A stretch of 64,000 nucleotides of DNA from Candidatus Magasanikiibacteriota bacterium (GTDB lineage: Bacteria > Patescibacteriota > Patescibacteriia > Magasanikbacterales > UBA922), in the NCBI GenBank assembly GCA_016193335.1, contig JACPSK010000001.1:585440-649439 (forward strand), in the 5' to 3' direction. Below the pieces are notes generated by a model. The model had not been told where the DNA came from. It searched no databases and saw only the letters and a list, made by a program, of their open reading frames with translations. This document shows positions 10,756 to 64,000 of the stretch, piece by piece. Position 1 is the stretch's first letter. Each line of letters opens with the position of its first letter. The position numbers and the translations under genes are program-made.

Positions 10756-11113
10756 AAAAAAATAGAATATATCAGATATGATTTTACGGTATTGGAGGTT
10801 AATTTTTTCTTAAGACAATTTTTTTGGGTTTTTGCGTACAATGTGGGAGATTGACAGAAAGATAGGATTCTGTTACATTAATTTATCACTTTTTAACTTA
10901 TTCCGGTTGAGAAGTGTTTGTTCTTTACAGGCTTTGAGCATAAGTCTATACAATTATCTATCAAGATAGATGCGTTCTTGACACAACGATAGACGAGGTT
11001 TCGGGCTTTATTTCGTTCCGAGTTATGCAAAAAAATCTGAGATTGTTTTTTCCGTTTTAAAAGGTTTTTTGGCACGACTTGGAACTGAGGCGTTCGAACT
11101 TGGGAGGGGACAA

Positions 11114-11908
11114 ATGGGAGACGCAAAGGTTGTGAGTTTGAGGGGCGAGCAGAATTCCAGCTCAGGTGGGCCGGGGGGACCGGAAAGGCCGTCTTCTTTC
11201 CTTGACAAGAGACGAGTTACCTGGCTGGTTACCGCTTTGGCGGTTTTGACGATGGCTCTTTTGTTTTTCGCCTTCGTTGCGGTCTGGACCAGGCTCAAGG
11301 CTTACGATGAGAGCCATGTCTTGGTGGGCGTTGAGAGTTTTCGCGCCTTGTCTTACCAAGCCTCATTGAGCGAGTCTTTGAGCAAAAACAACATTGTCTT
11401 TTATGAAGCGCTGAAACAGGCTCTGGACGAAAAGAAGTCCCTCGAGCTCCGGATTCAAGCCTTGCAGAAGGGACCCGGCTTTGGGGAAGGCTATGTTGAG
11501 GGCCGTCGGGAGGCCCTTGACCATGTGGCGCTACGTCTCGGCCTGGGAAGCGAGTTTTTCGACCAGCTTCTCTGGACTGCCGAGATTTGCCATGGTGACT
11601 CTAACTTGGTCTGGATGCGGGATCAACTCGCCGGCATCGCGGCCGGCTTTGGCTGCTCCTGCTACTGTTCAGAGCTGGTTAATCTGACAATTAAAGATGC
11701 CAGCCTGGAGCAGGTGCTTGCCTTTCTCGCAAGGGAATCCGGCGTTCCTGTGTTTAACGACGCCAAGATCACAGGAAACGTGACGTTGCGGTTCACAGAC
11801 ATACCCGCAAGTCTCGCGCTTCAGGCCATCGTAGGGCAGTTTGGCGCGGATCTGCGCTTCGAAGACGGCGCATACCATGTCGTGCCCTTTGTTGTAGGGG
11901 GAAAGTAA
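11114..11908 (+). CDS. GC-rich membrane-anchored protein with a C-terminal STN / secretin-N-like domain
   Basis: The ORF opens at TTG 11069. ATG 11114 is preceded by GGGAGGGG, so I prefer it. A single TM helix (LVTALAVLTMALLFFAFVAVW), a coiled-coil-like region, then VNLTIKDASLEQVLAFLARESGVPVFNDAKITGNVTLRFTDIPASLALQAIVGQFGADLRF. This resembles the STN / Secretin_N fold of TonB-dependent receptors and secretins. Codons are GC3-rich, unlike the neighbouring genes. Confidence 0.6.
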   Translation: MGDAKVVSLRGEQNSSSGGPGGPERPSSFLDKRRVTWLVTALAVLTMALLFFAFVAVWTRLKAYDESHVLVGVESFRALSYQASLSESLSKNNIVFYEALKQALDEKKSLELRIQALQKGPGFGEGYVEGRREALDHVALRLGLGSEFFDQLLWTAEICHGDSNLVWMRDQLAGIAAGFGCSCYCSELVNLTIKDASLEQVLAFLARESGVPVFNDAKITGNVTLRFTDIPASLALQAIVGQFGADLRFEDGAYHVVPFVVGGK

Positions 11909-11994
11909 GGACCCTGGACGCCTTGGAAAATATGGCGTTCGGGTTCACCTTCAACCTTTATATAATGTATGTAAGAGTTGAGCAGGGGCGCTTA

Positions 11995-12462
11995 TCATGC
12001 GGATAGGCGCTTATTTTTTTCATGCCGATCTGAGATTAATAGCAAGACTCCAAGTATAATGAGAATATCGGCCATATTGATGACTGAACCCAAAATGCGT
12101 ATATAATCAATAGTCGCCGAATACACAATACGGTCTATCAAATTTGAGATCGCTCCACTTGCGATGAAGGCGAGCGCGTAAAATGAAAGTATCGTTTTCT
12201 TTTCTGATTTTGAAAGATATAGGAAACCAATGAACAGAATAAGAAAACTAAGGGGGATGATCACATAATGGGGGATGGGTATGCCAAAAGCAACACCAGG
12301 ATTTTTTAAATATTCCCATCCGAGCCAGGGCTTGATGTAATAATAACTAAGATTTTGATGATATTCCGCAATATATTTTAAGATTTGGTCTGCTATTAAA
12401 AAAAGTCCACCGATTGCAGGAGCAATCAAGAGGTGGACTTTTTGTTTTTGCATATGCATCAC
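11995..12462 (-). CDS. lspA: Lipoprotein signal peptidase II
   Basis: 155 aa with four TM segments and the conserved blocks NPGVAFGI and INMADILIILGVLLL (FNxAD-like). Confidence 0.8.
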   Translation of the reverse strand: MMHMQKQKVHLLIAPAIGGLFLIADQILKYIAEYHQNLSYYYIKPWLGWEYLKNPGVAFGIPIPHYVIIPLSFLILFIGFLYLSKSEKKTILSFYALAFIASGAISNLIDRIVYSATIDYIRILGSVINMADILIILGVLLLISDRHEKNKRLSA

Positions 12463-12505
12463 GGTTCTCTGTGGTCTATGGTCTCGTTGCGAACAAACGA
12501 GTTGT

Positions 12506-12898
12506 CTAGACTTCGTTGGTAAGCGTTTTTTTGCAACTGACGCAGGAACTGGAGGTCGGCCGAGCCAATAATCTTTTTTCGTCTATGGGTTGATCGCAGT
12601 ATTTACAAATCCCGTAGCTATCTTCTTTTATTCGCTTTAGGGCTGTGTTGACATCACGCAAAGATTTTTCCAGAGTCATTTCCAAAGGTTTATTGCTGAG
12701 ATAGTCCGCGATTTCGCGCGCGTTTTCATCGCTTTCTTCACCATATTCAGGAAAACTTGCGTCAAAATCACCATCCACATGTGGGTTGGGGGTAGAGAAA
12801 CCCAAAAGCTCTTTTTCGAGTTTTTGTTTTGTGGCTTCGAGAGACAAGCGAATTTTTTCTAAAAAATCCGTGCTGAATGCGCTGGCTTTTTTTGCCAT
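12506..12898 (-). CDS. DksA/TraR-family C4 zinc-finger regulator (start placed at the internal MAKKASAF)
   Basis: C-terminal CKYCDQPIDEKRLLARPTSSSCVSCKK four-Cys finger preceded by a coiled-coil region. The upstream 32 codons of the listed ORF look non-coding. Confidence 0.7.
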   Translation of the reverse strand: MAKKASAFSTDFLEKIRLSLEATKQKLEKELLGFSTPNPHVDGDFDASFPEYGEESDENAREIADYLSNKPLEMTLEKSLRDVNTALKRIKEDSYGICKYCDQPIDEKRLLARPTSSSCVSCKKTLTNEV

Positions 12899-13185
12899 AT
12901 GAGTAAACGTATAAAGAAAGCAAAGGGGGAAATGAATCAAATAAAGTGAAGGGATTATACAGTGTGGAAGAACAAAAAGCAAGGTTTCGCGCAAGTCTCT
13001 GAGCTTGGCTAGTACTTGGTTTTAAATCCGGATCAAAGTTGGGGCAAGCGAGTGTCATAATTCTCCCTTGTTTGGTTTTGAAAACAACTTGTCTCAGCTA
13101 AATCGGATTTTTACCGGCCAACTCGGGTGGGAGACATGCTTAGCTATAGATAATATAGTATTTATAGAAAGAAACAATAAAAAAA

Positions 13186-13410
13186 GAGGCAGAGTACGCC
13201 CCAAGGAAGACTATGTGGCTTTCTGCCTCTAGTTATCCCAGGGTGCGGTGGTTCCGAACAATATAGACGTTTAATGAAGATAAGCGTACATATTGTTCGG
13301 AAGCAGCCAGCGTATGCTGGGATAAAGTGCTCTTACACCGCTCCTGCGTGATACGTTCCTACACCGTCCGGTTAGGGATGCAGGTGCGTAAACGGAACGC
13401 CACTGATGCT
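13186..13410 (+). ncRNA. Candidate structured non-coding RNA (identity unresolved; weak SRP-RNA-like GGAAGCAGCC motif)
   Basis: GC-rich island with no ORF inside a 1.3-kb non-coding stretch. Nested helices are GAGGCAG/CTGCCTC, CCCAGGG..CTGGG and CCGAACAATAT..ATATTGTTCGG. GTTCGGAAGCAGCCAG is similar to the SRP RNA helix-8 motif, but the expected GNRA tetraloop is replaced by an insertion. Confidence 0.3.
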
Positions 13411-13697
13411 TAGCCATTCACATATAATTTTAACCTTTGATGTTGGTTTTTGGATATCAAGCGATATCTAAGCGGCTAAGCAAAAGAAGCAGTGAAAAGA
13501 GAAGTACAACATCTGATCCATTATGGTGGAGAGTTGTACGATTTTAAGGATCACAAAAGTAGTATAGCATATTTTAAACATTTTGTCAACGGAGAGGTTT
13601 TTTTGTCTAGATTTAGCTAAAAAACGTTGTTATTTGGCTTATTTTAGCATATTTTTTTGTATACACCTTTATATACAAATATATATTGTGAAAGTAA

Positions 13698-13927
13698 TTA
13701 TCCACAAATTCCTGTATTTTTCCCCATACTTATCCACAGTGTATAGAATATTGTATACAAAAAGCATATTTTTTTGTTGATTTTCTGTGTTTTTCCTCTG
13801 ATTTCCTTGTTTATGTTTTGAATGTGACATTATTAAAGTTTCAGTATGAATGCCTTATGAATATATTTTTTAGTTATTTGGGTAGTTTTTCCACAGAAAT
13901 ATGGAGTTTTCCACCTTTTTATCCACA
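13698..13927 (+). promoter_or_regulatory. Second DnaA-box cluster (three perfect TTATCCACA plus two one-mismatch boxes), 11 kb from dnaA
   Basis: Perfect boxes at 13698-13706, 13730-13738 and 13919-13927. TTTTCCACA at 13887-13895 and TTTTCCACC at 13907-13915. All are on the same strand and flanked by AT-rich TTGTATAC repeats. Confidence 0.6.
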
Positions 13928-14383
13928 TTTGTATAGGTTTTTGTATACTTTTTATTCAATCAACTAATTTTTCGTGGGTTTGCTCCGGAGTTTCCTTTGA
14001 GCTACCTCGCGGCTCTGCTACGGAGTAGCTCATTCGGTCAGAGGCGCCGAGGTTGATAAGAGCTTTTTATTTTCAGCCCTTTTTCCCGCGTTAAGTTGTT
14101 TCCGTTCTTTGAAACAGAAAACCAAACACTGTCGAGTCATTGCGCCATGGTAAAAGGCGAAAGAGCTTGGAGCAGGTGTTTGGTTTTTGTTTTTGTAGGT
14201 GGAATTTTTGATTGATTCGCCCCTTAAAGATAAGTAAGCGGCATTGTTTGGTTCTTATGTGGAGTATTAAGGTATGTTTATCCCCAGCTTTGGATCTGAT
14301 CCTTGAATAAAAAAAATAATGTTGTTATTATTACAAATAACTTCAAACTTGCCTCGGGGCAAGAGGGAAATGGAGGTAGAGAA

Positions 14384-14641
14384 ATGTCTCGGTTCAAGTG
14401 GTTGGCGTTCGCCGCGATCCTCGCGGTGTCCGCCTTCATCATCGCGGCCAGTCCCCCGACGGACGAGGGTAGCACGGCCATCACGCAGAGCACGGGCAAC
14501 GCGCTGACCAACACGGGCCAGATCACGACCACGACGTCGCCGCCGGAGGTCGGTGACATCCCCACGGGCGTGGTCACGAGCGCCGCCGCGACGACGGGCA
14601 ACACCGGCCAGGTGAACACGGGCCCACAGATCGGCCCCTAG
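14384..14641 (+). CDS. Small secreted Thr/Gly/Asn-rich peptide encoded in a sharply GC-rich island
   Basis: SD GGAGGTAGAGAA precedes ATG 14384. Signal peptide MSRFKWLAFAAILAVSAFIIAASPP, then TGNALTNTGQITTTTSPPEVGDIPTGVVTSAAATTGNTGQVNTGPQIGP. Nearly every codon ends in G or C, whereas the flanks are AT-rich. Confidence 0.55.
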   Translation: MSRFKWLAFAAILAVSAFIIAASPPTDEGSTAITQSTGNALTNTGQITTTTSPPEVGDIPTGVVTSAAATTGNTGQVNTGPQIGP

Positions 14642-14709
14642 GCGCTCTCTCGACGTCTCGCCTTCTGGGTCTAGTGCTTCGACCCCCCTCCATTGGCACT
14701 GAAGTGAAG

Positions 14710-14791
14710 ACAACCGCACGCCAGACTACCATTTTTTATACGGCAAAATCGTGTAGAAAGCGGTGGGAGGACTGTGCGGTTGTTTTTTTGT
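14710..14791 (+). terminator. Long-stem terminator downstream of the GC-rich small ORF
   Basis: ACAACCGCAC (14710-14719) pairs with GTGCGGTTGT (14774-14783), followed by TTTTTTT. Confidence 0.45.
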
Positions 14792-14989
14792 TTTATATTT
14801 TTCGAAGCTCATTGAGCCTGGGTTAAAGAAAATTTTATTTGTTTTAAAAACCCCTTAAGAGAGCGGTTTTATTTTATTTTAATTTTGATTTTTGTATGGT
14901 TCTCATTGAACCCTGACCACACCTGTCCGGATAGGGAGCTTTTGCCAGTTTGTTGGAAGAGATTTGATTTATTAGAAATTAAAAATTTA

Positions 14990-15027
14990 AAATTGTTTAA
15001 AAATTATAAATTTTAAATTAAAAATTT
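14990..15027. repeat. Palindromic AT-rich intergenic motif, copy A
   Basis: AAATTGTTTAAAAATTATAAATTTTAAATTAAAAATTT lies immediately upstream of the 15043 gene. Near-identical copies are at 51923-51958 and 46593-46636, with a weaker one at 48733-48762. Confidence 0.5.
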
Positions 15028-15042
15028 AATCAGGGAGGGATT

Positions 15043-18000
15043 ATGGAATATATTTTGTCGCGTTTTTTGAATATGAGTTTGATGGTACTGACCAGTTTGG
15101 CATTTTCATTTCAAACACCGGAAGTATCAATGATCATAAATGAAATAGGCGCTTATGAGAAGAAAGATTATGAATGGATAGAAGTTTTTAATGCTTCAGA
15201 CCATGAGACGGATATGAAGGACTGGAGTTTTTGGGAACAAGACGTGAATCATGGTTTGACGCTGGCCCAAGGAGAAGACAGTATCGTTGGAGTTGGAGAA
15301 TACGCGCTGGTGGTTCAGAATTTTGGAAAATTTAAAGAATTGTATCCGAATGTTACGAGCACTATATTTGATAGTTCCTGGGCTTCGCTTAATGAAGGAG
15401 GAGAAGAAATAGGTTTGAGAGATCCCGAGGACAATCTGGCGGAACATTTTGTGTATATGCCGGCTGAGGAGAAATCACTCGAACGTGTGGAAATTTTTAC
15501 TGATATATACACAGAAGAAAACTGGAAGAAACATCCGGAGTCAAACTCAGCGGGATTTGCCAATTACTGGGCCGCGCAAGAAAGAGCAGAAGATTCCACT
15601 GACATTGATTTTGGTGAAGACTTTCCGGAAGAGCAAACCGGAACTCAAAGTGTTCCGGAATCTGCGGAGGAAGCTGGCACGGAATTTTTTAATAAGACCC
15701 TGGTCGCGCAGATGGAGCTCGGCGCCACGTCCACCTATGTGGGTGTAGCTGTTGTATTTGATGCCTCGGAGTCGTATGACAATGATGGACAAATACTTTC
15801 GTATTACTGGGATTTTGGCGATAAGTCTTTTTCAAGCAGTTCTCTTGCTTCGCATCATTATTCCGCTACAGGCACTTTTATGATTGAGCTCTCGGTAAAC
15901 GATGGATACGCGACAAATACAGCAAGCACGAGTTTGAAAGTGGAAGAGTTGTTTTTAGGAGGAAAAGGCGAAAATTCAAGTTTAGACAGCGGGCCTCAAC
16001 TGGGCGCGGATGCTCTCCCCAATCCTCTCGACCCGCGTGAATATATTTTTATCAATGAATTTGTTTCATATCCTAATGAAGGACAGACAGAATGGGTTGA
16101 ATTGTTTAACGCGGCCAGCTCTTCATTTCAGATTAATGGTTGGAGACTTAGAGATGGCAAGGGACAGATAGCTTTTGTGAGCTCTACCATAAACGGAGGA
16201 GCCTATATCCTTGTTGAATTGGAAAAGAATGTTTTAAATAACAGCGGCGATCTCATACGTCTTGAGGATGAAAAAGCGGTATTGGTTGACCAAGTAGCAT
16301 ACGGCGACTGGGAGAATGAAATTGGATTAACTAAGATGTTCTCAATTCCGCGCGCTTACTCATTGGGAAGGTTTGGAGATTACACAGGGAAAGTATATGG
16401 ACTCAATGTTTTTAAACTTACGTCTTTAACAAGTCCCGGGGCTCTGAACTATTGGAGTGGAAAGGGCGAAGAGCTTCAACCTACGCATCAGTCTTCACTT
16501 GATATCGGCAGTAATTCGGGCGGAGCGGTTCAGAATCCAAAGGGTTTGGAAAATATCTCAAAAGATACGTCTTACACGAAAGATACTTTTGTTTCTTCTT
16601 CAAAAATCATCTATAAAAAGGGTGAGATTGTAATAAGTGAAATTTTTCCCAATCCGAAGGGTTCGGATACGAGTGATGAATTTATAGAATTATATAATTT
16701 GGCTGATAGAAGTATCGATCTGTCGGCGTGGAAACTCGGGGATGGTTCTGCGCGAAGATATGCTATTGATGATGTCTTGCTTGGGCCGGGTGAATACCGG
16801 GCTTTTAAAAGAAGCGAAACTCATATTTCTCTGAACAACACGGGCGCTGAAGAAGTTTTGCTTTTTGGACCGGACGCAGGCCTCTTGGACCAGGTTTCTT
16901 ACGATGGATCGCACGAGGGACAGGCTTACATGCGTAATGACCGCGGAACATGGTTTTGGACGGCAGAGCCAAGCCCCGGGGCTGGCAATATCTTAAAAAA
17001 TTTAGATTCTGTTTCTTCAACGGCTTCAAGTACTATTCAACTTAAAACACAAGAGGAGAAGTCTGAAGAAGAATTTTCGTTTTTCGTTCCTGACGATTTT
17101 ATGTTTATTGAGATTTCAGAAATCTTCCCCAATCCTTCGGGACTTGATGACAAAGAATTTATTGAACTTTACAACAGGGGGAGCGCGGCCATTGATCTCG
17201 CGGGGCTCAAACTTGATGATGAAGAAGGTGGATCCAGACCTTATGAATTCTCGGACAATACGATTATACCCGCGTACTCATTCAGAGTTTTTTATAAAGA
17301 AGAGACCGGTTTGACTTTGAATAATTCGTTTGATTCGGCGCGTCTCTTGCTTCCTGGCGGAGAAATATTGCAGGAGATATTCTTTACAGACGTGATCGAA
17401 GGCGCTTCATTCAGCAGAGCCAATAATGACGCCTGGGACTGGACTATTATACTTACGCCTGGAGCCCCTAACGAGATTGTATTTGGAAATCAGACTTCTC
17501 CAAACACCAAAGCAGGTCTTCGCTCAGCCCTTCCGAAATCTTTCGCTGAAACACAGCTTGGCAGTCTGGCGAATTATGAGGCCGGGGACAGAATTAAAGT
17601 GAAAGGGACGGTTGCCGTGGCTCCCGGCGTGTTTGGATCTCAGTATTTTTATATGGTTGATATGGGACCGCTCGGCTCGGTATCGAGTTCGTTGGGCGGT
17701 GTCCAGGTGTATATGAATAAGAAAGATTTTCCACAATTAATTACAGGAGACTATGTTCAAGTGGCAGGAGAACTTTCTGATGTTCGAGGTGAGCCTCGGT
17801 TAAAAATTTCAGCGAAAGAAGATATTGTGAAACTCGATCATGTTGGCTTGGGTTCTCCAGGGCTTTTGGAGATATCGGAAATAGAAAATAGACAGCTTGG
17901 CGGGATGATTCGCGTGGAAGGCGAAATAACTTCTTTGAAAAGCACGTATATGTTCGTGGATGACGGGACTGGAGAAATAAAAGTGTATTTTAAAAAGGGG

Positions 18001-18273
18001 ACGGGCGTTCATGGTGGAAATTTTCAGGAAGGCTACAAGGTATCTGTTATTGGTTTGCTCGCCAAAGATGATAGCGCGTTACAGATTTTGCCTCGTTCTT
18101 TGGATGATATCGAAGTTATAGATTCAATGTTGAAGGTAGACAATAGCGAAAGGGATTTTTCATTTATCATTAAAGGCAATGAACGCTTGTACCTGTTTAT
18201 TATTTTTTGTTCCATCGCCCTTATTTGCGGGATTATTTATCTGCGTAGGGTGAAAAGCAAAAAAATTCAATAA
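15043..18273 (+). CDS. Large secreted/surface protein with four lamin-tail-like domains, a PKD domain, an OB-fold-like region and a C-terminal TM anchor
   Basis: Repeated LTD signatures (IINEIGAYEKKDYEWIEVFN, YIFINEFVSYPNEGQTEWVELFN, IVISEIFPNPKGSDTSDEFIELYN, IEISEIFPNPSGLDDKEFIELYN). PKD motif WDFGDKSFSSSS..HHYSATGTF. C-terminal hydrophobic LFIIFCSIALICGIIYL followed by RRVKSKK. Confidence 0.75.
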   Translation: MEYILSRFLNMSLMVLTSLAFSFQTPEVSMIINEIGAYEKKDYEWIEVFNASDHETDMKDWSFWEQDVNHGLTLAQGEDSIVGVGEYALVVQNFGKFKELYPNVTSTIFDSSWASLNEGGEEIGLRDPEDNLAEHFVYMPAEEKSLERVEIFTDIYTEENWKKHPESNSAGFANYWAAQERAEDSTDIDFGEDFPEEQTGTQSVPESAEEAGTEFFNKTLVAQMELGATSTYVGVAVVFDASESYDNDGQILSYYWDFGDKSFSSSSLASHHYSATGTFMIELSVNDGYATNTASTSLKVEELFLGGKGENSSLDSGPQLGADALPNPLDPREYIFINEFVSYPNEGQTEWVELFNAASSSFQINGWRLRDGKGQIAFVSSTINGGAYILVELEKNVLNNSGDLIRLEDEKAVLVDQVAYGDWENEIGLTKMFSIPRAYSLGRFGDYTGKVYGLNVFKLTSLTSPGALNYWSGKGEELQPTHQSSLDIGSNSGGAVQNPKGLENISKDTSYTKDTFVSSSKIIYKKGEIVISEIFPNPKGSDTSDEFIELYNLADRSIDLSAWKLGDGSARRYAIDDVLLGPGEYRAFKRSETHISLNNTGAEEVLLFGPDAGLLDQVSYDGSHEGQAYMRNDRGTWFWTAEPSPGAGNILKNLDSVSSTASSTIQLKTQEEKSEEEFSFFVPDDFMFIEISEIFPNPSGLDDKEFIELYNRGSAAIDLAGLKLDDEEGGSRPYEFSDNTIIPAYSFRVFYKEETGLTLNNSFDSARLLLPGGEILQEIFFTDVIEGASFSRANNDAWDWTIILTPGAPNEIVFGNQTSPNTKAGLRSALPKSFAETQLGSLANYEAGDRIKVKGTVAVAPGVFGSQYFYMVDMGPLGSVSSSLGGVQVYMNKKDFPQLITGDYVQVAGELSDVRGEPRLKISAKEDIVKLDHVGLGSPGLLEISEIENRQLGGMIRVEGEITSLKSTYMFVDDGTGEIKVYFKKGTGVHGGNFQEGYKVSVIGLLAKDDSALQILPRSLDDIEVIDSMLKVDNSERDFSFIIKGNERLYLFIIFCSIALICGIIYLRRVKSKKIQ

Positions 18274-18315
18274 AAACTTAGAAATAAATCATTTTTTCTG
18301 GTATACTATGCCCAC

Positions 18316-20001: not shown

Positions 20002-20149
20002 TTTTTTGTTCTGCGTTTCTTCTTTGTCGTACTTTTTAGCTCCTGTTTTTGGTTGACAGGAGATAGAGCCTTTGTTATACTTTTTCCACTTTCAGGAGTC
20101 TTTTTTCGTTTAGAGGAATGCTTTCTGAATTCTGGTTAATACACAATAC

Positions 20150-20225
20150 GGGCCAGTAGCTCAATTGGTAGAGCGCCTCGTTTGCACCGAGGAGGTAGCG
20201 GGTTCAAATCCTGTCTGGTCCACCA
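20150..20225 (+). tRNA. tRNA-Ala (TGC), CCA encoded
   Basis: Cloverleaf with anticodon loop TTTGCAC, the G3:U70 alanine identity pair, T-loop TTCAAAT and a 3' CCA. Confidence 0.85.
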
Positions 20226-20374
20226 GCCTTCGACAAGGCTTCGGCTGGCACAGCCAGCGAAAAGGTTTGGCGAAGGATCTCCTTCTTCGCTGAAGCTGCG
20301 AAGGGCAGTACAAAACAGATCATATTGTTGCGGTTCGGCAACGCCGTCTCTCGCAGCGCGCCACAATTTAACGA

Positions 20375-20446
<72 letters not shown>

Positions 20447-20521
20447 CATCTTCGTTCCGACAGTAGCCGGAACTTCAAAGTGTGGGCACGACGCTTGCGC
20501 TGTGAAGCTTTAGCGAAGCAG

Positions 20522-20598
20522 CGGGGTGTAGCTCAGTTGGCTAGAGCGCGTGGTTTGGGACCATGAGGCCGTAGGTTCAAGTCCTATCACCCCGACCA
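20522..20598 (+). tRNA. tRNA-Pro (TGG), CCA encoded
   Basis: Acceptor CGGGGTG/CACCCCG, anticodon loop TTTGGGA with G37, T-loop TTCAAGT, 3' ACCA. Confidence 0.85.
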
Positions 20599-20636
20599 AG
20601 TTAGACCATGAATTGTGTGATAAAAGTAGAAACAGA

Positions 20637-47194: not shown

Positions 47195-47238
47195 TAAGCT
47201 CAGCCCCGTTTCATAGTTCAAAGCATCTCCGTTATTGT

Positions 47239-49409: not shown

Positions 49410-49444
49410 AGTAGCACGGATCCGTGAACAAACTGATTATGTGT

Positions 49445-55281: not shown

Positions 55282-55523
55282 GTTTTCACAGGATATAGTA
55301 TGGAGGCTTATTGGTCAATGAATGATATATGAGCTTGAGATTGACATCCAAAGCTATCTATGGTATAAAATCTAGTCAAAAGTTTCTCCGACTGTTTTTT
55401 TCTCTTTATTAACACAAAATAAAGGGCAGAAGTCAGTCGGGAGAAACGCCCGACCAGTTGGCGGTCTGGGGCTCCGGCATGGCGCTGGAGTGAGAGGCTG
55501 CCATTGCGTAGGAGGAAGTCCCC

Positions 55524-56399: not shown

Positions 56400-56738
56400 G
56401 ATCCTCGGTACTGACACGAAGTCGGTACCTTGGTCCATCGGTCTTTGGGCCCCACCCGCAACGCATTTCGGTGCAACGCGCGTGAGGCTTCTTCTTTTAT
56501 ATACAAAATGTGATATACTTTTTTTGCATTATACCGACAGCACCGGCGTCCACGGATGCCGGCCGATAATGTCTGGCAACAGAATTGTAGAATTACAAAA
56601 CGTACGCGTTTTGTAAGAACATCCCTGTTGTTTGTGGGTTCACACACCCCGTGTTGGACGTTAAGAGACAGCGGTTTCACATTCGATACAGCTCGGAGAG
56701 TTTTCAACGAGCAGTGGCACGGACAGCGCTCAACACTT

Positions 56739-56852
56739 TTCCACGAGGATGGCGGACGCCTCGACTTCGGCAACTTCAACGAGTCGAACGGCCTCAACTG
56801 CAACAACTGGAACGACGACAACCCGAACGACAACATCGGCATCTTCCCCCTG
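56739..56852 (+). repeat. DGR template repeat (TR)
   Basis: Carries AAC (Asn) codons wherever the VR has diversified codons. It lies between the target gene and the avd/RT genes. The listed ORF 56556-56885 merely reads through it. Confidence 0.9.
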
Positions 56853-56898
56853 ATGATGTGTGCACCCAAAAGACGATTCCTCTGAATCGTCTTTGACG

Positions 56899-57282
56899 TT
56901 ATTTCAAACTGTGTAGCCACCCGCCGATCATTTTACCGATTACTGCCAGGCGTTCTGACAATTGCGCGTATTTGTTATTGTCCAGTGCTTTGATTTCCCA
57001 AAGAATTTGCAGAAAGAATTTTAACGCGTCAAATTGAGCACTTAATTTTTTAACAATGGCTAGCTTGTTTGTCCGTTCCGCATAACCGGCCGCGAGCGCC
57101 AGTGATAAAATATCGGTAAAAATTGCATCAATTTTTATACCCAATGAATACCGTGTGAGTCGTGGCAAATGAATTAAAAAACTATGCCAGAGTTTATAGG
57201 CGTTACTCAAACCATCAACGATCGGAATGTAGCTCTGGGGGGGGGGATTCCTAGTTTCGGATTGCGTAAGCAATTGCTTCAT
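56899..57282 (-). CDS. avd: Accessory variability determinant (Avd)-like four-helix-bundle protein (start placed at MKQLL; the ORF opens at 57330)
   Basis: About 127 aa. ...LPRLTRYSLGIKIDAIFTDILSLALAAGYAERTNKLAIVKKLSAQFDALKFFLQILWEIKAL...ERLAVIGKMIGGWLHSLK resembles Bordetella-phage bAvd and the 23S-rRNA-intervening-sequence four-helix-bundle family. It is on the strand opposite to the TR and RT. Confidence 0.7.
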   Translation of the reverse strand: MKQLLTQSETRNPPPQSYIPIVDGLSNAYKLWHSFLIHLPRLTRYSLGIKIDAIFTDILSLALAAGYAERTNKLAIVKKLSAQFDALKFFLQILWEIKALDNNKYAQLSERLAVIGKMIGGWLHSLK

Positions 57283-58281
57283 AGCTATGGTGATATTATT
57301 TCTATATCCAATCTTCTTGCCGCTTGGCAAGAGTTTGAAGTTGGAAAGAGTAAGAAATATGACGTTGTTCTGTTTGCGGATAGGTTAATGGACAACATCC
57401 TAGCACTCTATACGGATTTAGTAAACCGGACATATATCCACGGTGGTTATCGTGAATTTCGCATCAACGATCCCAAACCGCGTCTGATTCACAAAGCGAG
57501 TGTGCGCGACCGTTTGCTACATCATGCGGTACATAGAATGCTCTATCCTTTTTTTGATCGAATTTTTATTTTTGATTCCTTTTCTTGTCGGACCAATAAG
57601 GGCGTGCGTGCGGCGATTAACCGATTCAGAAAATGCGCGCACAAGGTCGGGCGCAACCATACACGCACAGTATGGGTCTTGAAATGTGATATTCGAAAGT
57701 TTTTTGCGAATATTGATCATGAAATTTTGTTGCGTATTCTTGATTATTATATTCCGGATAAAAGAATTGTGGATTTGCTGGAGAATATTATTGTAAGTTT
57801 TTCTATGACATCTGGTACTTCAGTTGGTTTGCCGTTGGGAAATTTGACCTCGCAGTTATTTTCCAACATTTATTTAGACCGACTCGATAGATGGGTGAAG
57901 CATCAGTTAAAAGAAAAGCATTATATTCGTTACGCGGATGATTTTGTGTTTTTATCCGCGGACAGAAATTATTTGCTGTCCTTGATTCCACAGGTGCAAC
58001 ATCTTTTATCCTGCACCTTAAAATTAGATCTGCATCCGAATAAATTTTTTTTAAAAACTATTGCGTCAGGTGTGGATTTTTTGGGCTGGATACACTTTTC
58101 AGATCACCGTGTACTTCGAAAAGTGACAAAACGGCGAATGACGAGAAAATTGGCGGAAAATTTCAAACCGGAAGTCCTGCAGTCGTATTTGGGATTACTC
58201 TCGCATGGGAATACGTTTAAGCTGCAAGAGACGATTAAGAATCAATTTTGGTTGGGCGGCACGCATATGTTAATGGGGTAG
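57184..58281 (+). CDS. DGR reverse transcriptase
   Basis: DGR-RT N-terminal block (NLLAAWQEFEVGKSKKYDVVLFADRLMDNILALYTDLVNRTYIHGGYREFRINDPKPRLIHKASVRDRLLHHAV), motif GLPLGNLTSQLFSNIYL and the catalytic IRYADDFVF. An alternative TTG start near 57262 is possible. Confidence 0.9.
   Translation: MPEFIGVTQTINDRNVALGGGIPSFGLRKQLLHSYGDIISISNLLAAWQEFEVGKSKKYDVVLFADRLMDNILALYTDLVNRTYIHGGYREFRINDPKPRLIHKASVRDRLLHHAVHRMLYPFFDRIFIFDSFSCRTNKGVRAAINRFRKCAHKVGRNHTRTVWVLKCDIRKFFANIDHEILLRILDYYIPDKRIVDLLENIIVSFSMTSGTSVGLPLGNLTSQLFSNIYLDRLDRWVKHQLKEKHYIRYADDFVFLSADRNYLLSLIPQVQHLLSCTLKLDLHPNKFFLKTIASGVDFLGWIHFSDHRVLRKVTKRRMTRKLAENFKPEVLQSYLGLLSHGNTFKLQETIKNQFWLGGTHMLMG
57237..57246. repeat. G10/C10 homopolymer tract inside the avd coding sequence and the RT 5' region
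   Basis: CTGGGGGGGGGGATTCC. It encodes GGG in the RT frame (if the ATG at 57184 is used) and NPPPQ in avd on the opposite strand. Confidence 0.85.
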
Positions 58282-58486
58282 TAGAGCTACTATAAGTAAG
58301 TAAGCTTGATAAAGCCGTTTTTTTATTTTATAGTCAAAAGTCAATTTGCGTGAGACGCAAAGACATCGCAATGGATTGCGGCTTTTTTGCGTCTTGCGAC
58401 CGGAATATCGGTTTCGAGACAGACTCGGGCTTTGCTCGGGTTTCAGGACGACAATTGGGTTTGAGAATGAAAAGAGGAGACAGCAA

Positions 58487-59944
58487 GTGAACAGGTTGGC
58501 CAAAATTTTTGTTGTTTTGTTCTATGTGTCTTGTTCCTGTCCTGAAGAGGACGGGGCGGTCATTGCGGATGTTTCGAGTTTTGGCAAGGACGCCGCCGCT
58601 TCCGTTGACACGACCGTGGCCGATATGAACGGCCAACTCGGGTTGTGCTACGTGGCTGAAGATGGCACGCCTTGCGACGATGAGAACGCCTGCACCACGG
58701 GCGATGAGTGCGAGGATGGACATTGCATCGGCGCCACGAGCGTGGTCTGCAAGAGCGACAGCGCTTGCGTGCCGACGAGCTGTGACCCACAGACCGGCTG
58801 TCTTATTGGCGAGACCTTGCCTGATGGCTCGGCCTGCAGCTTGGCTTGCCATGTGGAGGCTTACTGCGAAGCAGGCGACTGCTTGCCTGCCCAAGGCTCC
58901 AAGGTCCAATGTCCGAAGAGCGAGAACCCTTGCGTGGATCACCTGGAGTGCGACTCGGCCAACGGCCAGTGCACGATCCAGATCTTCAAGCCCGAGGGAG
59001 CTTCTTGCGACACGGACGTGAACACTTGCACGTTGGAGACCTGTGACGGTAACGGCCTATGCGCGGCTCAAGGCAAGAACGATTGCGCCGGCCTCAAGGC
59101 CATTGATCCGTGCTGGGCTTACCAGTGTTTGCCGGGCAAGGGTTGCGTGAAGCAACCGGGCGTGTTCTTCTTCAGCCTCTCTTGCGACGACGGGAGTCCT
59201 TGCACGATCAACGACGAATGTCAGCTCTCCGAGGGCGGCCTCGGTGGTTGCAAGGGAACTCCGCTGAAGACGAACGACGGCAACCCCTGCACCAGCGACT
59301 CCTGTGTCGCGGGTGAGGTCTTGCACGAGCCCATCAACGGCGCGCCCTGCGACGACGGCAACCCCTGCAGCGTCTCGGTCTGTGAGGGCAAGATCTGCGT
59401 CTACTACTCGCCGAGCGACTGCACAGACGGCAACCCCTGCACGGACGACGCCTGCAGTGACACCAGCGGCTGCGTCTACTTCGTCAACGACGGCAACCCT
59501 TGCGACGACGGCAACCCCTGCACCAGTGACTTTTGCAAGCAAGGGGTTGGCTGTGAGGCCGAAGTGCTGGTCGCGACGCCCTGTGAGGATGGGAGTCTCT
59601 GTAGCCTCGAGGACTTCTGCTTCGCGGGTGTCTGTCAGCCTGGCGCGAAGAGTCTCGGCTGCACAGACGGCAACCCCTGCACAGACGACGCCTGCCAACC
59701 GGCCAAGGGCTGCGTGTTCACGAACAACGCCAAGCCCTGCGACGACGGCAGCGCCTGCACCGAGGGGAGCTTCTGCAAGAACGGCTCTTGCAGTGGCTAC
59801 GCGGTGCTGAAGACCTGCCTGGACAACAACTCTTGCACCGAGGACATCTGCACCCCGCTGATTCCGGACTGCGTCTTCCCCACGAAGACCGATGGCGTCC
59901 CTTGCGGCGGAGACAAGATCTGTCTCTCGGGCGTCTGCCTGTAG
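58487..59944 (+). CDS. GC-rich secreted cysteine-repeat protein (CDDGNPC / DGNPCTDDAC repeats, Myxococcales-type Cys-rich repeat-like)
   Basis: GTG 58487 is preceded by AAGAGGAG. Lipoprotein-like signal MNRLAKIFVVLFYVSCSC, then at least 12 tandem Cys-rich units (...DGNPCTSDSC..., APCDDGNPCSVSVC, TDGNPCTDDACSDTSGC, NPCDDGNPCTSDFC, TDGNPCTDDACQPAKGC, KPCDDGSACTEGSFC). The ORF opens at TTG 58346. Confidence 0.75.
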   Translation: MNRLAKIFVVLFYVSCSCPEEDGAVIADVSSFGKDAAASVDTTVADMNGQLGLCYVAEDGTPCDDENACTTGDECEDGHCIGATSVVCKSDSACVPTSCDPQTGCLIGETLPDGSACSLACHVEAYCEAGDCLPAQGSKVQCPKSENPCVDHLECDSANGQCTIQIFKPEGASCDTDVNTCTLETCDGNGLCAAQGKNDCAGLKAIDPCWAYQCLPGKGCVKQPGVFFFSLSCDDGSPCTINDECQLSEGGLGGCKGTPLKTNDGNPCTSDSCVAGEVLHEPINGAPCDDGNPCSVSVCEGKICVYYSPSDCTDGNPCTDDACSDTSGCVYFVNDGNPCDDGNPCTSDFCKQGVGCEAEVLVATPCEDGSLCSLEDFCFAGVCQPGAKSLGCTDGNPCTDDACQPAKGCVFTNNAKPCDDGSACTEGSFCKNGSCSGYAVLKTCLDNNSCTEDICTPLIPDCVFPTKTDGVPCGGDKICLSGVCL

Positions 59945-60285
59945 AGAGGCCTTTGTTCTTTTGATGATCCGGACCTGATATTCGTGAACTCAGGTCCTCG
60001 CTTCCCGTCTAGATGAAATATTCCTCTGAACAGGAAGAAAAAAGAAGTTATTTTGGCTTCTTTTTTATTTGAGATGAAAATTAAGTTTCCTTTAAGGAGC
60101 ATCTAAATTTGCTTATGATCTTTGTCGTTAAAGTCTCCTGGATATTTGCTTTTAAACAGGCTAATTTTTTTGTTGGTATGTTAATTGAAGCTTTTTGTAC
60201 TACTATGTTATACTTATTTGGTAGTAATTTCATTATTAGAATATAGGTCGGTTCTAATAATAAATCATTCTTAAAATAATATAGT

Positions 60286-60699
60286 ATGGCTAAAAAAGTC
60301 GTCATGACCTTGGGGGTAGTATTTGTGCTCGTGGGTCTCCTGGGTTTTGTAAACGATCCGGTTCTCGGGCTGTTTGAAGTTGATCTTTGGCATAATCTCG
60401 TTCACTTGGTGAGTGGCGTGCTGGCTCTTCTTTTTGCCATGAAAGGAGAAGAAGGAGCAAAGATGTTCGCGAAAGTATTCGGCGTAGTGTATGCTTTGGT
60501 CGCCGTTCTTGGACTTTTGCTCCCGGGTGACATGCTCCTTGGTCTTATCGAAGTAAATTTGGCAGATGATTTGCTTCATGTGCTTTTGGCTCTTGTATTT
60601 TTGTATGCTGGTTTTGCCAAGGCGTCAGGAGCTCCTTCGATGCCCGCACAGAATCCTCCAATGTCTTCTTCCGGAATGGATTCACACATGCATTCGTAA
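60286..60699 (+). CDS. DUF4383-like small membrane protein
   Basis: 137 aa with four TM helices and the DUF4383-like pattern (GLLGFVNDPVLGLFEVDLWHNLVHLVSG). Confidence 0.5.
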   Translation: MAKKVVMTLGVVFVLVGLLGFVNDPVLGLFEVDLWHNLVHLVSGVLALLFAMKGEEGAKMFAKVFGVVYALVAVLGLLLPGDMLLGLIEVNLADDLLHVLLALVFLYAGFAKASGAPSMPAQNPPMSSSGMDSHMHS

Positions 60700-60726
60700 A
60701 GCCGGGGTTTTGTCCTACGATATTTT

Positions 60727-60760
60727 GAAACCACACTCTATAAATCAGAGCGTGGTTTTT
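60727..60760 (+). terminator. Terminator
   Basis: GAAACCACACTCTATAAATCAGAGCGTGGTTTTT. Confidence 0.6.
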
Positions 60761-61083
60761 GGTCCCAATAAATCAGGTTGGGCCTGCCTGGCCCGAGTTT
60801 CGCATAAATGGTCCATTCGTATTCCACCGGGGCTGTTTGTTTGTCACGGATGGAACGGCGGATAGGTTGATTCTGGCGCGGTAAAATGGGACTTTAACAT
60901 TTAAAGCCCCCACCGGGGAATATATCAAATTCTATGTTAGAATAATCTAAACTGCATATATCCAGGCTTGTATCGGAGATAAAATCGGTTTGAGCGGGCT
61001 TGATTTTCCGCAGCCTGTCGCGGGGATGACTTATTTGTTTTCCCTTAATCTGTCGTCGCTGGGTTGTTTTAGAGTTTCACGCT

Positions 61084-61959
61084 ATGTCACAAAATTTCAT
61101 TAAAAAAATACAGGCACTTGAGAATAAAATAAAAAAAGAAGGCTCCAGTCCCGCTGTCTTGCGTTCATTCAAGAGAATAATATGGGAGTATTATAAGAAA
61201 AATAAACGGGATTTTGATTGGAGAAATACAGATAATCCATATCACATTGCGGTATCTGAAATAATGCTTCAACAAACTCAAACCAAACGCGTGGAGCAAA
61301 AATATCTTGAGTGGATCAATAGTTTTCCGGATTGGCAAAGCTTGTCCTCGGCTCCTCTGAAAAAAATTTTACTGGTCTGGCAGGGCATGGGGTATAATCG
61401 TCGCGCAATAGCGCTCAAAGCCTGCGCTCTTAAAATTATAAAAGAATACAAAGGCTCTTTGCCTTCTGATTCTGAGACTCTCAAGACATTTCCACATATT
61501 GGGCCTAATACAGCCGGTTCCATTCTTGCTTTTGCGTTTAACAAGCCGTCCGTGTTTTTGGAAACGAATATACGCAGTGTTTTTATTTTTTTCTTTTTTT
61601 CAAAAAATAAAAAGGTGCGCGATCAAGACATTTTGACATTGGTGGAAAAAACTTTGGATAAAAAGAATCCCAAAGAATGGTACTGGGCGCTTATGGATTT
61701 TGGAGCTTTTTTAAAGAAAGAATTTCCGAATCCAAGCAGAAAAAGCAAACATTATTCCAGGCAGCCCAAATTTGAAGGTTCAAACAGGCAGCTGAGAGGC
61801 AGACTCCTGAAGCTCTTGTCAGAAGCCGAGGGTCTGAGAGCGGGACAGATCGCGGATGAGTTGAAATTAGATTCAAGACAGATAAGAATGAATTTGGAAA
61901 ATCTGGAAAGAGAGGGATTCATCATTAAAAAACATGGCAGATTTATAATTGTCCCATAA
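61084..61959 (+). CDS. HhH-GPD DNA glycosylase, MutY/A-G-specific adenine glycosylase-like (no obvious 4Fe-4S Cys cluster)
   Basis: Helix-hairpin-helix plus Gly/Pro-rich loop and catalytic Asp region (PHIGPNTAGSILAFAF...). C-terminal extension. Confidence 0.65.
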   Translation: MSQNFIKKIQALENKIKKEGSSPAVLRSFKRIIWEYYKKNKRDFDWRNTDNPYHIAVSEIMLQQTQTKRVEQKYLEWINSFPDWQSLSSAPLKKILLVWQGMGYNRRAIALKACALKIIKEYKGSLPSDSETLKTFPHIGPNTAGSILAFAFNKPSVFLETNIRSVFIFFFFSKNKKVRDQDILTLVEKTLDKKNPKEWYWALMDFGAFLKKEFPNPSRKSKHYSRQPKFEGSNRQLRGRLLKLLSEAEGLRAGQIADELKLDSRQIRMNLENLEREGFIIKKHGRFIIVP

Positions 61960-61961
61960 GT

Positions 61962-62624
61962 ATGCACCGTCATATGCAGTCTCAATTATCCAAAAAACAG
62001 CGGGCGAACATAGTTCTCCGCGAACTCAAAAAGTATGTTCCTAGTTCGAAGACTATTTTGGAATTTTCGAATCATTGGGAATTGCTCGTGGCAGTTATGC
62101 TATCGGCTCAGACCACGGACAAACAGGTTAATGTAGTAACCAGAACTTTATTTAAAAAATATCCGGACTTAAGACATTACCTCAATGCCAAAGCGTCTGA
62201 ATTTGAAAAAGATATTTCATCAGTGAATTATTTTCGCAGTAAAGCAAAACATTTACTTGTCACCGCAGAACTCTTGCATAACAGATTCAATGGCTTGATA
62301 CCCAAAACGGCAAAAGAACTCATGACCCTGCCCGGCGTGGGAAGGAAAACGGCGTTGGTGGTTCTCGGCAATGCCCATGGAATCGTTGAAGGCATAGCGG
62401 TGGACACTCATGTTGAGCGTTTGTCGAGATTGTTTGGTTTGAGCGCTGAAAAAAGCGTTGAAAAAATGGAAAAGGAACTGAGGGAGTGTATACCAAAAAG
62501 AGAATGGTTCCATTTTACAAATAGAATGATTGCATATGGCAGAGCCTACTGTCCTGCGCGTTGTCTTCACGATTCTTGTCCAATATACAACATTATCAAG
62601 AAGACAGGCGCTGTATTCACATGA
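61962..62624 (+). CDS. nth: Endonuclease III (Nth)
   Basis: LVAVMLSAQTTDKQVN, HhH LPGVGRKTALVVL, catalytic VDTHVERL, and a C-terminal Cys cluster (YCPARCLHDSCPI). Confidence 0.85.
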   Translation: MHRHMQSQLSKKQRANIVLRELKKYVPSSKTILEFSNHWELLVAVMLSAQTTDKQVNVVTRTLFKKYPDLRHYLNAKASEFEKDISSVNYFRSKAKHLLVTAELLHNRFNGLIPKTAKELMTLPGVGRKTALVVLGNAHGIVEGIAVDTHVERLSRLFGLSAEKSVEKMEKELRECIPKREWFHFTNRMIAYGRAYCPARCLHDSCPIYNIIKKTGAVFT

Positions 62625-62711
62625 TCGGGATTATAAATAAAAATCCTTTTTTCTCAGTTGTATTATTACATGTAAGAAAAAAGGATTTTGGACGTCTGAT
62701 AGACATCCTGT

Positions 62712-64000
62712 CTAGCTCTCCTTGGACTCGGAGATTGCTCCTTGCAAGATTCTTTGCCCTATGGCCGAAAGCGTGGAAACACGTTCACGGTTGGGCCCGT
62801 CCACATAGAGACGGAGCTTGCCTTCTGTACCGCTGGCTCTGAACATGACGTAGGTGTGGTCGGCCAAGTTGATTCTTGTGCCGTCCATGGTGTTTACGTC
62901 AAGAACGCTTGTGAATGATTTGCGAGCCACTTCTACGGCTCGCGCAAGGACATCCACCTTCGCGGAGTCTGAGACCTCGAAGCCATGCTCTTCGTGGTAG
63001 AAGCGCGGCAGTTCGGCGGCAAGTTCGCTGAGGAGCTTGCCGGTTCTCGCCATGATCTCGAGCATCTTCGCCACGGCAAAGACCCCATCATACCAGATGA
63101 AGCCGCCTTTCACAAAGGCGTACTTTGCCGAGTTCTCATAGGCAAAGGCTGCTCTTTCGCGCTTGATTGCCGTGCCGGTATCCGGCTGGCCAATCTTGCA
63201 GTAGCAGACTCGAGCGCCGAGCTCTTCGCAAACAGCTTCGATGAGCTTGCTGGAGTTTACCGGTGTTACCACGGTCTCGCCGCGTCTTACCAGGTACTTG
63301 GCAAAGATCGCGCCGATCACGTCTTCGCCGACAGCTTCGCCCTTCTCGTTGATGAAGAGGACACGGTCGGCATCGCCATCGAAGCAGACTCCCATGTGGC
63401 AGGAGTCGCCGACAACTCGACGCAGAGCTTCGCCGCAGCTCGAGGCACGGCATTCGCTCTTGCGATCTGGCACTTCCTTCGGCTCAGTAAAGATCTGGAC
63501 CACATCACAGCCCAGGGCTCTGAACAAAGGTCCGGCAACTCCGCCTGCGGTGCCGTTGCCAGCATCCACGAGGAGCTTGGGGGCCTCTTCGCCAAACTTC
63601 AGAGAGCTGATGCCCTCGATGTCCAGTCGTTCAAGCAAGGCCCTCGTATAGATTGTTTCAGAGCGTTCAGTCGACACCCTTTGGCTGTGACCGAGGGACA
63701 AGGGTTTGGCGCTGTGAAGCCTTCCGGATTCGAACCAGCGCTCTATCACACTAGTGACCTCTATGTCACAGTAGGTGCCATCGCCATTCACCAAGATGAT
63801 CCCAATCCGGTTCGGCTCCATGTGAGAACCGGTGATCTCGATGCCCCCATCTACAGCGTCCTCTCCCAGGAAGCTCAGCACGGAGAACATCCCGGTGGAC
63901 ATCTGGCCCAAATCCAGTACATCCGCGCCTGCGGACATGGCGCCAGCCATCGCGGCCGCCGCCAAAGCCTGAGCGCCGTTGCGCTGGTCATGCCCTATGG
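62712..64000 (-). CDS. GC-rich phosphohexomutase (phosphoglucosamine mutase / phosphomannomutase family); the N-terminus lies beyond the window end
   Basis: Active-site-like loop GIEITGSHMEPNRIGIILVNGDG (TASHNP-type) and the four-domain alpha-D-phosphohexomutase layout. The reading frame is open to the window edge. GC3-rich. Confidence 0.7.
   Translation of the reverse strand, partial: IGHDQRNGAQALAAAAMAGAMSAGADVLDLGQMSTGMFSVLSFLGEDAVDGGIEITGSHMEPNRIGIILVNGDGTYCDIEVTSVIERWFESGRLHSAKPLSLGHSQRVSTERSETIYTRALLERLDIEGISSLKFGEEAPKLLVDAGNGTAGGVAGPLFRALGCDVVQIFTEPKEVPDRKSECRASSCGEALRRVVGDSCHMGVCFDGDADRVLFINEKGEAVGEDVIGAIFAKYLVRRGETVVTPVNSSKLIEAVCEELGARVCYCKIGQPDTGTAIKRERAAFAYENSAKYAFVKGGFIWYDGVFAVAKMLEIMARTGKLLSELAAELPRFYHEEHGFEVSDSAKVDVLARAVEVARKSFTSVLDVNTMDGTRINLADHTYVMFRASGTEGKLRLYVDGPNRERVSTLSAIGQRILQGAISESKES

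Follow-up and report, generated by a model that had tools for sequence, protein, structure and literature searches.

The stretch of DNA analysed here (64,000 nucleotides; hereafter the window) is the origin-proximal 64 kb of the chromosome of a groundwater Candidatus Magasanikbacteria bacterium, a member of the Candidate Phyla Radiation (CPR; Patescibacteria), and its AT-rich backbone is interrupted by seven islands of GC-rich sequence. These comprise six protein-coding genes, among them the target of a diversity-generating retroelement (DGR), a ParB-Crp fusion and a phosphohexomutase, together with one non-coding or pseudogene patch, at a GC content of 0.55-0.69. We find that the islands are genuine and form one continuous sequence with the backbone, and that they are probably accessory DNA from a higher-GC regime, acquired in several separate transfers at different times.

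Seven GC-rich islands in an AT-rich backbone

The window as a whole has a GC content of 0.446, and 40 neighbouring genes taken as background average 0.434±0.030, with a GC content at third codon positions (GC3) of 0.450±0.055 and a GC content of 0.54 at fourfold-degenerate sites. Against these 40 genes, the island genes reach z-scores of 4.0-8.6 for GC and 3.3-8.9 for GC3 (Table 1). The islands are 0.3-1.8 kb long and together occupy 7.2 kb, or 11.3% of the window; in a fine-scale GC profile their boundaries are sharp at 60-nt resolution, each transition being complete within 60-100 nt. A first-pass annotation had counted at least seven GC-rich genes amid AT-rich ones, a tally that holds for islands with z-scores of 4.0-8.6 except that one of the seven, at 46841-47110, is not an intact gene. 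Its description of codons ending almost uniformly in G or C is apt for 14384-14641 (GC3 0.94) and 55524-56399 (0.87), but overstates the case for the others, at about 0.62-0.79.

The GC excess peaks at the third codon position in five of the six island genes, and in four of the six it persists at fourfold sites, where amino-acid composition is controlled for. Fourfold-site GC is 0.86-0.93 in the youngest-looking islands; in the STN-like and ParB-Crp genes it is 0.62 versus 0.54 in the background, and in these two genes codon position 1 carries as much of the excess as position 3. The proteins of the long islands are themselves shifted, with Phe, Tyr, Met, Ile, Asn and Lys (FYMINK) depleted (z -2.5 to -3.5) and Gly, Ala, Arg and Pro (GARP) raised, indicating that GC pressure has acted on the proteins too and arguing against selection at synonymous sites alone. 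Moreover, the GC-rich sequence overruns several coding sequences (CDSs), starting ~100 nt before them and ending 50-100 nt after them, and an intact open reading frame (ORF) is lacking altogether from one island; together these point to a property of the DNA rather than of the codons.

Could the GC peaks stem from function instead of history, as structured RNA genes or as proteins rich in Gly, Ala, Pro or Cys? An additional GC peak at 20150-20600, unconnected with the islands, is indeed a tRNA cluster; the 85-aa peptide and the cysteine-repeat protein have biased amino-acid compositions (GC at second codon positions 0.62 and 0.52, respectively), and island 4 could be an RNA. Yet the third codon position holds the largest excess in five of six genes, the ParB-Crp protein and the phosphohexomutase are ordinary globular proteins, and Rfam at its gathering score finds tRNAs only and nothing in the islands, making this explanation extremely improbable.

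As the first-pass annotation had noted, the islands also carry long spurious ORFs on the opposite strand (examples of 150-376 aa; Table 1). Gene callers trained on the AT-rich backbone accordingly misplace the strand of the DGR target, the cysteine-repeat protein and the 85-aa peptide: on the GCA_964404105.1 contig (L187 3347-4477, 6373-6891 and 7096-7737) and in Logan assemblies (L099 6800-7252) the recorded calls are on the antisense strand, with lengths of 376, 172, 213 and 150 aa, respectively. Protein databases therefore largely lack the true proteins.

Table 1. Islands, island genes, DGR components and antisense ORFs of the window, with the replication genes at its start. z-scores are against the 40 background genes.
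Feature	Coordinates	Strand	Description	GC	GC3	z (GC/GC3)
dnaA	826-2208		Window start			
dnaN	2455-3588		Window start			
Island 1	11050-11920	+				
STN-like gene (island 1)	11114-11908	+	264 aa, orphan membrane-anchored protein	0.552	0.64	4.0/3.4
Antisense ORF	14267-14719	-	150 aa			
Island 2	14345-14730	+				
85-aa peptide gene (island 2)	14384-14641	+	Signal peptide, then Thr/Gly/Pro-rich peptide	0.690	0.94	8.6/8.9
Island 3	32790-34600	-	Between ruvB and class II ribonucleotide reductase			
ParB-Crp gene (island 3)	32896-34563	-	555 aa	0.579	0.63	4.9/3.3
Antisense ORF	33367-34062	+	231 aa			
Island 4	46830-47135	+	Patch of ~300 nt, no intact ORF	~0.64		
Antisense ORF	55308-56438	-	376 aa			
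Island 5	55410-56460	+				
DGR target gene (island 5)	55524-56399	+	291 aa	0.663	0.87	7.7/7.6
DGR variable repeat	56259-56372		3' end of target			
DGR template repeat	56739-56852	+	Direct repeat of variable repeat	0.58		
DGR accessory gene, bAvd-like	56899-57330	-	Pfam bAvd, E=5e-11; native AT-rich composition			
DGR reverse transcriptase	57184-58281	+	Pfam RVT_1, E=9e-23; native AT-rich composition	0.406		
Island 6	58520-60000	+				
Cys-repeat protein gene (island 6)	58487-59944	+	485 aa from GTG start, secreted cysteine-repeat protein	0.615	0.79	6.1
Antisense ORF	59057-59698	-	213 aa			
Island 7	62700-64000	-				
Phosphohexomutase gene, in-window part	62712-63965	-		0.577	0.69	4.8/4.3
Phosphohexomutase gene, full CDS (island 7)	62712-64151	-	479 aa, extends past window end	0.58	0.69	

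Island junctions recur in independent assemblies

Sharp compositional breaks in a metagenome-assembled source are what an assembly or binning chimera would leave, with GC-rich pieces of another organism stitched into the contig, and a chimeric contig was the alternative that the first-pass annotation had offered; those breaks and that source are all that speaks for it. Every island junction, however, can be found again, 99.8-100% identical, in independent Logan assemblies, each built from one of more than a dozen runs (SRR12113383 to SRR12113431). One Logan contig (L082) corresponds to window positions 31736-39190 with a single mismatch (99.99% identity) and covers both ParB-Crp junctions; another (L084) corresponds to 54911-56678, and sets of contigs span 7468-20404 (L099-L106), 41766-50467 (L191-L195) and 56354-64000 and onward (L188-L190). 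Island 1 is found with identical flanks in eight single-run assemblies, the junctions of island 2 recur in L099-L104, and the cysteine-repeat island is spanned by L188 and L190 at 100% identity. The junction evidence extends to two NCBI metagenome-assembled genomes (MAGs), with identical ParB-Crp and STN-like proteins encoded on a second MAG contig of 686,675 bp annotated as 'Candidatus Magasanikbacteria bacterium'. Exact protein matches assign the window to a 246-kb contig of GCA_964404105.1.

Two further observations count against a chimera. The phosphohexomutase island is syntenic in a sister species recovered in a different study, and the assemblies differ from one another by only 4-6 bases, all within the DGR variable repeat (VR) and all opposite adenines of the template repeat (TR), a pattern that points to biology rather than assembly error. 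Stitching thus has next to no chance of being the explanation, and the mosaic is biological, not an artefact of metagenome assembly.

Several probable transfers from higher-GC sources

Dinucleotide composition also separates the islands from their surroundings. Measured by delta*, a dinucleotide distance normalised for GC, the five long islands lie 150-241 from the background, where length-matched background pieces have a 95th percentile of 81-112; the two shortest islands are borderline (85-aa peptide, 215 versus 199; island 4, 148 versus 196). The DGR/cysteine-repeat block, island 4 and the phosphohexomutase are absent from the syntenic position in relatives, as is the STN-like gene, in its case in distant relatives only. 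Where the first-pass annotation had proposed many transfers from a high-GC donor, the dinucleotide, amino-acid, flank and absence evidence favours transfer, if only indirectly, but not a single donor, given GC3 values from 0.62 to 0.94 and pairwise delta* values of 55-199.

This spread also bears on whether one transfer from one high-GC donor was later scattered by rearrangement. Some islands are indeed alike, with a delta* of 55 between the ParB-Crp and phosphohexomutase genes and of 95 between the DGR target and the ParB-Crp gene. The STN-like island is nevertheless distinct (delta* 134-199 to the others), all seven are dispersed through 53 kb of otherwise conserved backbone, and, whereas the phosphohexomutase is older than a species split, the DGR/cysteine-repeat block lies in a variable hot spot, so that a single transfer is very unlikely.

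We consider it likely, rather, that several separate horizontal transfers entered this lineage at different times; that DNA moved into this lineage and not out of it, how many events there were and what the donors were like are inferences on our part. The 85-aa peptide, DGR target and cysteine-repeat protein, with GC3 still at 0.79-0.94, would be the youngest arrivals, and the phosphohexomutase, ParB-Crp and STN-like genes would be older, their synonymous sites having drifted part of the way towards the host while first codon positions (GC1) and amino acids remain GC-type. The grading of GC3 (from 0.94 to 0.62), with slower change in GC1 and amino acids, agrees with transfers that differ in age or in donor. 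High-GC relatives within the Patescibacteria are one plausible source, since the nearest phosphohexomutase outgroups sit in contigs of GC 0.60-0.69; we name none because, the sister-species phosphohexomutase aside, the closest homologues of island genes are at most 46% identical.

Several points weigh against transfer. No integrase or transposase Pfam domains occur among the island neighbours, no tRNA genes adjoin the islands, and the island flanks contain no direct or inverted repeats of at least 11 nt. Protein searches spanning 5.8-15 billion proteins revealed no donor for the ParB-Crp protein, the STN-like protein or the DGR target, with homologues at no more than 37-46% identity; a recent transfer (GC3 0.87-0.94) should leave close relatives, unless the donors are unsampled. 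Viral and plasmid collections likewise gave no relatives of the island proteins searched. Immediately upstream of the phosphohexomutase and 85-aa peptide genes are AT-rich promoters of sigma-70 type that look native. Within the DGR, composition differs between the target, at GC 0.66, and the reverse transcriptase (RT) and accessory genes, at ~0.40, though the parts must cooperate, and transfer would thus need an extra step, either target-module exchange or capture of a foreign gene. Finally, two homologues are as GC-rich as the window genes: the sole homologue of the DGR target (L085), 46% identical, has a GC3 of 0.85 beside a flank of GC 0.47, and the sister-species phosphohexomutase (L086) is no less GC-rich than the window copy despite more AT-rich flanks. 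Both fit a maintained GC bias as well.

Specific vehicles also fared poorly. A phage origin was rejected, IMG/VR holding no relatives of the cysteine-repeat protein, the ParB-Crp protein, the DGR target or the STN-like protein, as was a plasmid origin, there being no plasmid matches for the cysteine-repeat protein or the 85-aa peptide and matches to the ParB-Crp protein only through its ParB N-terminal part (at most 43%). For the 85-aa peptide and the cysteine-repeat protein, homology searches covered viral and plasmid collections and family libraries only. A dispersed family of GC-rich repeats or elements was set aside in turn, small patches of the window and its relatives being no more alike than shuffled controls.

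An old phosphohexomutase island and the possibility of maintained GC

Island 7 consists of a single gene, flanked by genes for an HhH-GPD glycosylase (GC 0.418) and a dihydroorotate dehydrogenase (GC 0.399). Its product belongs to the archaeal-GlmM-like PGM/PMM family (TIGR03990, 244 bits), with Pfam domains PGM_PMM I-IV upholding the phosphohexomutase of the first-pass annotation, although the CDS runs on beyond the window end, to 64151. The orthologue in L086 has 74-75% amino-acid identity, an HhH-GPD neighbour at 81% and a homologous promoter; it is likewise GC-rich (GC 0.60, GC3 0.73) between flanks of GC 0.36-0.38. Its presence at the same locus makes the island older than the species split. 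No phosphohexomutase lies near the methyltransferase gene in any of the loci L002-L081. A more distant, 46%-identical phosphohexomutase is carried by a mosaic contig (L087 1-18042), in which a ~8-kb block at GC3 0.65-0.78 is followed by a block of genes resembling pilins of a type IV secretion system (T4SS) at GC3 0.33-0.39.

The two orthologues bear most directly on whether GC-richness is actively maintained, by selection on codons or mRNA, by GC-biased gene conversion or by repeated re-import of alleles, in genes that are native or long acquired. Their fourfold sites are near saturation, at 47% identity where 33% is expected by chance (n=162), yet both keep a fourfold GC of 0.72-0.76, and the more AT-rich of the two genomes does not have the less GC-rich copy. 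The DGR target and its homologue both have GC3 values of 0.85-0.87; GC-richness sets in close to or at the start codon, downstream of native promoters that are conserved; GC-rich orphan islands recur over the clade; and the mosaic contig L087 sets whole high-GC3 blocks beside low-GC3 ones. Each of these is consistent with maintenance.

No special force is needed for the phosphohexomutase, however, if it began with a fourfold GC of ~0.9, the value returned by a rough two-state relaxation with flank divergence as the clock. Such a start is plausible because the youngest-looking islands show 0.86-0.93, and by this rough calculation simple amelioration is sufficient, but only just; a stronger statement, that neutral amelioration is impossible here, was dropped in view of the background fourfold GC of 0.54 and of divergence reckoned per lineage. 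Nor does the divergence of the phosphohexomutase differ significantly from that of its flanking gene (0.47, n=162, versus 0.60, n=70). Untranslated flanks and a patch without an intact ORF are GC-rich as well, the amino-acid shift is unlike what selection at synonymous sites would produce, and the flank of the DGR-target homologue in L085 is known for 409 nt only. Taken together, we judge active maintenance unlikely. Quite unlikely, too, is the broader form of the idea, in which a GC-rich state would be held across the Magasanikbacteria in a certain set of accessory genes, whose products are surface, secreted and DNA-binding proteins and proteins of sugar metabolism, by selection, biased conversion or gene flow from a high-GC partner such as a host; were such gene flow the cause, the island sequences themselves would point towards the host of a groundwater CPR lineage. 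Under the transfers we favour, this shared island can serve to test, in a natural setting, whether CPR genes ameliorate at all after transfer.

A diversity-generating retroelement of split composition

The first-pass identification of 55524-56399, the GC-richest of the long genes, as a DGR target is borne out. Located at the 3' end of the target ORF, the VR is 82% identical to the TR, every mismatch falling at a TR adenine, and an RT gene completes the cassette. The order is target (+), TR (+), Avd (-) and RT (+), and the last two ORFs overlap in head-to-head orientation. Three VR variants are known (in the window, in L187 of GCA_964404105.1 and in the Logan contig L084), differing at seven positions, all opposite TR adenines; assemblies differ only at such positions, and the DGR is active in the population.

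The core of TR (+), Avd (-) and RT (+) also occurs in two AT-rich IMG/VR contigs, whose RTs are 51% (L092) and 45% (L093) identical to that of the window. The TRs of the window and L093 are ~71% identical over 89 nt, and the spacing from VR to TR is ~480 nt in the window and 487 nt in L092. The targets of both contigs are AT-rich and, outside the VR, unrelated to the window target. Movement of the whole cassette from a high-GC donor was rejected, the RT and Avd genes being of host composition and the TR resembling that of an AT-rich relative.

A variable neighbourhood around the methyltransferase gene

Downstream of the DGR, island 6 encodes the cysteine-repeat protein. Its repeats take the form C-x-DGNPC-T-x-D-x-C (family D1/D2), and the protein matches Pfam Dicty_CTDC (E=4.7e-12), in agreement with the first-pass description. 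It was considered as a second DGR target and discarded, having no TR-like repeat.

Genes for an HhH2 glycosylase and a methyltransferase are adjacent in the relatives L003 and L008; between them the window carries a 5.8-kb insert holding the DGR, the cysteine-repeat protein and a DUF4383 protein. Relatives have GC-rich orphan islands of their own near the methyltransferase and ahcY genes, non-homologous to those of the window (L008 10258-12027; L003 9369-9620 and 15314-16168; L007 14900-15300 and 17091-17993), and this neighbourhood looks like an insertion hot spot. In L008, a GC-rich gene for a cysteine-rich secreted protein with MopE motifs adjoins the same methyltransferase gene; homology between it and the window's cysteine-repeat protein was sought, and none was detected.

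The remaining islands

The C-terminal ~75 aa of the island 1 protein resemble a secretin/TonB N-terminal (STN/N0) domain. The STN domain named in the first-pass annotation is a weak assignment, matched in Pfam at E=0.0086, below the gathering score; a stretch like the N-terminal region of PilQ/HofQ matches at E=2e-5. Among 1.84 billion representatives, the only full-length match to the protein was itself. In the distant relatives L114 and L122, the ComM gene lies directly next to the DksA gene with no STN-like gene between them; a metagenome scan with ComM returned relatives at no more than 56% identity.

Island 2 follows a sigma-70-like site at 14303-14331, and its GC-rich stretch continues ~90 nt beyond the stop codon, as far as a terminator hairpin. 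The product is, as first described, a secreted Thr/Gly-rich peptide of 85 aa, its signal peptide preceding a Thr/Gly/Pro-rich sequence; Pfam and NCBIfam gave no match to it. Between dksA and this gene lies an AT-rich stretch of 1.2 kb (13058-14267, GC ~0.36) without an ORF of at least 80 aa or an Rfam match.

In island 3, the fusion proposed in the first-pass annotation is confirmed by Pfam, with ParB_N and HTH_ParB domains joined to a cyclic-nucleotide (cNMP)-binding domain and a Crp helix-turn-helix (HTH); NCBIfam parB_part scores 101 bits. A 5.8-billion-protein search gave no homologue above 37% identity, and neither it nor a search of plasmids gave one of equal architecture, which on this evidence appears unique. 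A parA gene was not seen in the origin-proximal 64 kb. At 1178 aa, the neighbouring class II ribonucleotide reductase (34899-38435) is long; two stretches of it match the barrel domain, a TSCPD domain is also present, and the protein may carry an insertion such as an intein.

Island 4 was first described as a small Zn-ribbon ORF, a reading undone by an in-frame TAG at 46952-46954 that is identical in five independent assemblies, across which the whole patch is 100% identical. It has coding-like periodicity (GC1, GC2 and GC3 of 0.60, 0.53 and 0.79), with a C-x12-C...C-x2-C motif downstream of the TAG; a promoter-like TTGACA/TATATT site precedes the patch, and a perfect bidirectional terminator hairpin (~47165-47200) follows it. 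Rfam gave no match, and a permissive scan of 46500-47300 at E<=5 returned noise only; folding z-scores of -2.7 and -3.4 on the two strands stem partly from the terminator hairpin and are not diagnostic. The syntenic interval of L008, between ahcY and an alkylation-repair gene, is without the patch and AT-rich throughout. Island 4 could be a pseudogene remnant, a read-through gene or an uncharacterised RNA.

Backbone genes and GC variation outside the islands

The backbone holds a housekeeping set typical of a small genome: PBP1, ComM, LspA, DksA, EF-P, transketolase and RuvB, together with the class II ribonucleotide reductase, AhcY, DsbA/VKOR and a TrmA-like methyltransferase. The methyltransferase is at most 61% identical to that of the nearest species-level relatives in a genome collection, and those informatively named are Magasanikbacteria. 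At 41451-44931, four tandem paralogous genes for ABC-2 membrane proteins (PF06182) adjoin one ABC ATPase gene; the first of the four has a GC3 of 0.63 despite an overall GC of just 0.485. The GC mosaic extends past the window, to L187 15182-18338 (window-equivalent 67143-70299), where GC stands at 0.52-0.55 in the guanylate kinase, inositol monophosphatase and PALP enzyme genes amid AT-rich neighbours, so that apparently core genes can also be GC-elevated.

Comparison with known systems

In the amelioration model of Lawrence and Ochman, the synonymous sites of transferred genes are expected to relax first. The older-looking islands resemble this, GC3 lying nearest to the host while GC1 and amino acids stay foreign (ParB-Crp: GC1 0.65, GC2 0.44, GC3 0.62). 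The phosphohexomutase departs from it, remaining strongly GC-rich after ~1 substitution per fourfold site between the lineages, at the limit of simple relaxation. Daubin, Lawrence and Ochman reportedly found acquired bacterial DNA to be usually more AT-rich than its host.

The window, if we read it correctly, illustrates cleanly the repeated acquisition, by a streamlined CPR genome, of single genes from higher-GC sources, beside its replication origin; were the donors to be named, the islands might hint at the partners of these uncultured cells. Among 125 genomes of groundwater Patescibacteria from an aquifer, islands and transferred genes make up as much as 13% of genome length, and the hundreds of islands and singly transferred genes were mostly exchanged among Patescibacteria (PMC12455944). 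The window's 11.3% is similar, and its islands are likewise mostly single genes, including a transcription or partition regulator and a sugar-phosphate mutase. They differ from those of that survey in being all GC-richer than the host, and in showing no mobility genes, tRNA anchors or flanking repeats.

The retroelement resembles the DGRs described from CPR bacteria in its chromosomal location, its RT and bAvd genes, its TR/VR pair with adenine-only mismatches, and a VR placed 3' in a target that bears the C-type-lectin-like motif 'DG..L..G.F...GL' (PMC5758913). Atypical GC content has there been used as a sign of DGR transfer (PMC5758913); in the window, by contrast, only the target is GC-rich, and the RT and Avd genes are host-like. 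Acquired islands in CPR genomes are thus already known; what is unusual here is that all are GC-richer than the host and that one is demonstrably old.

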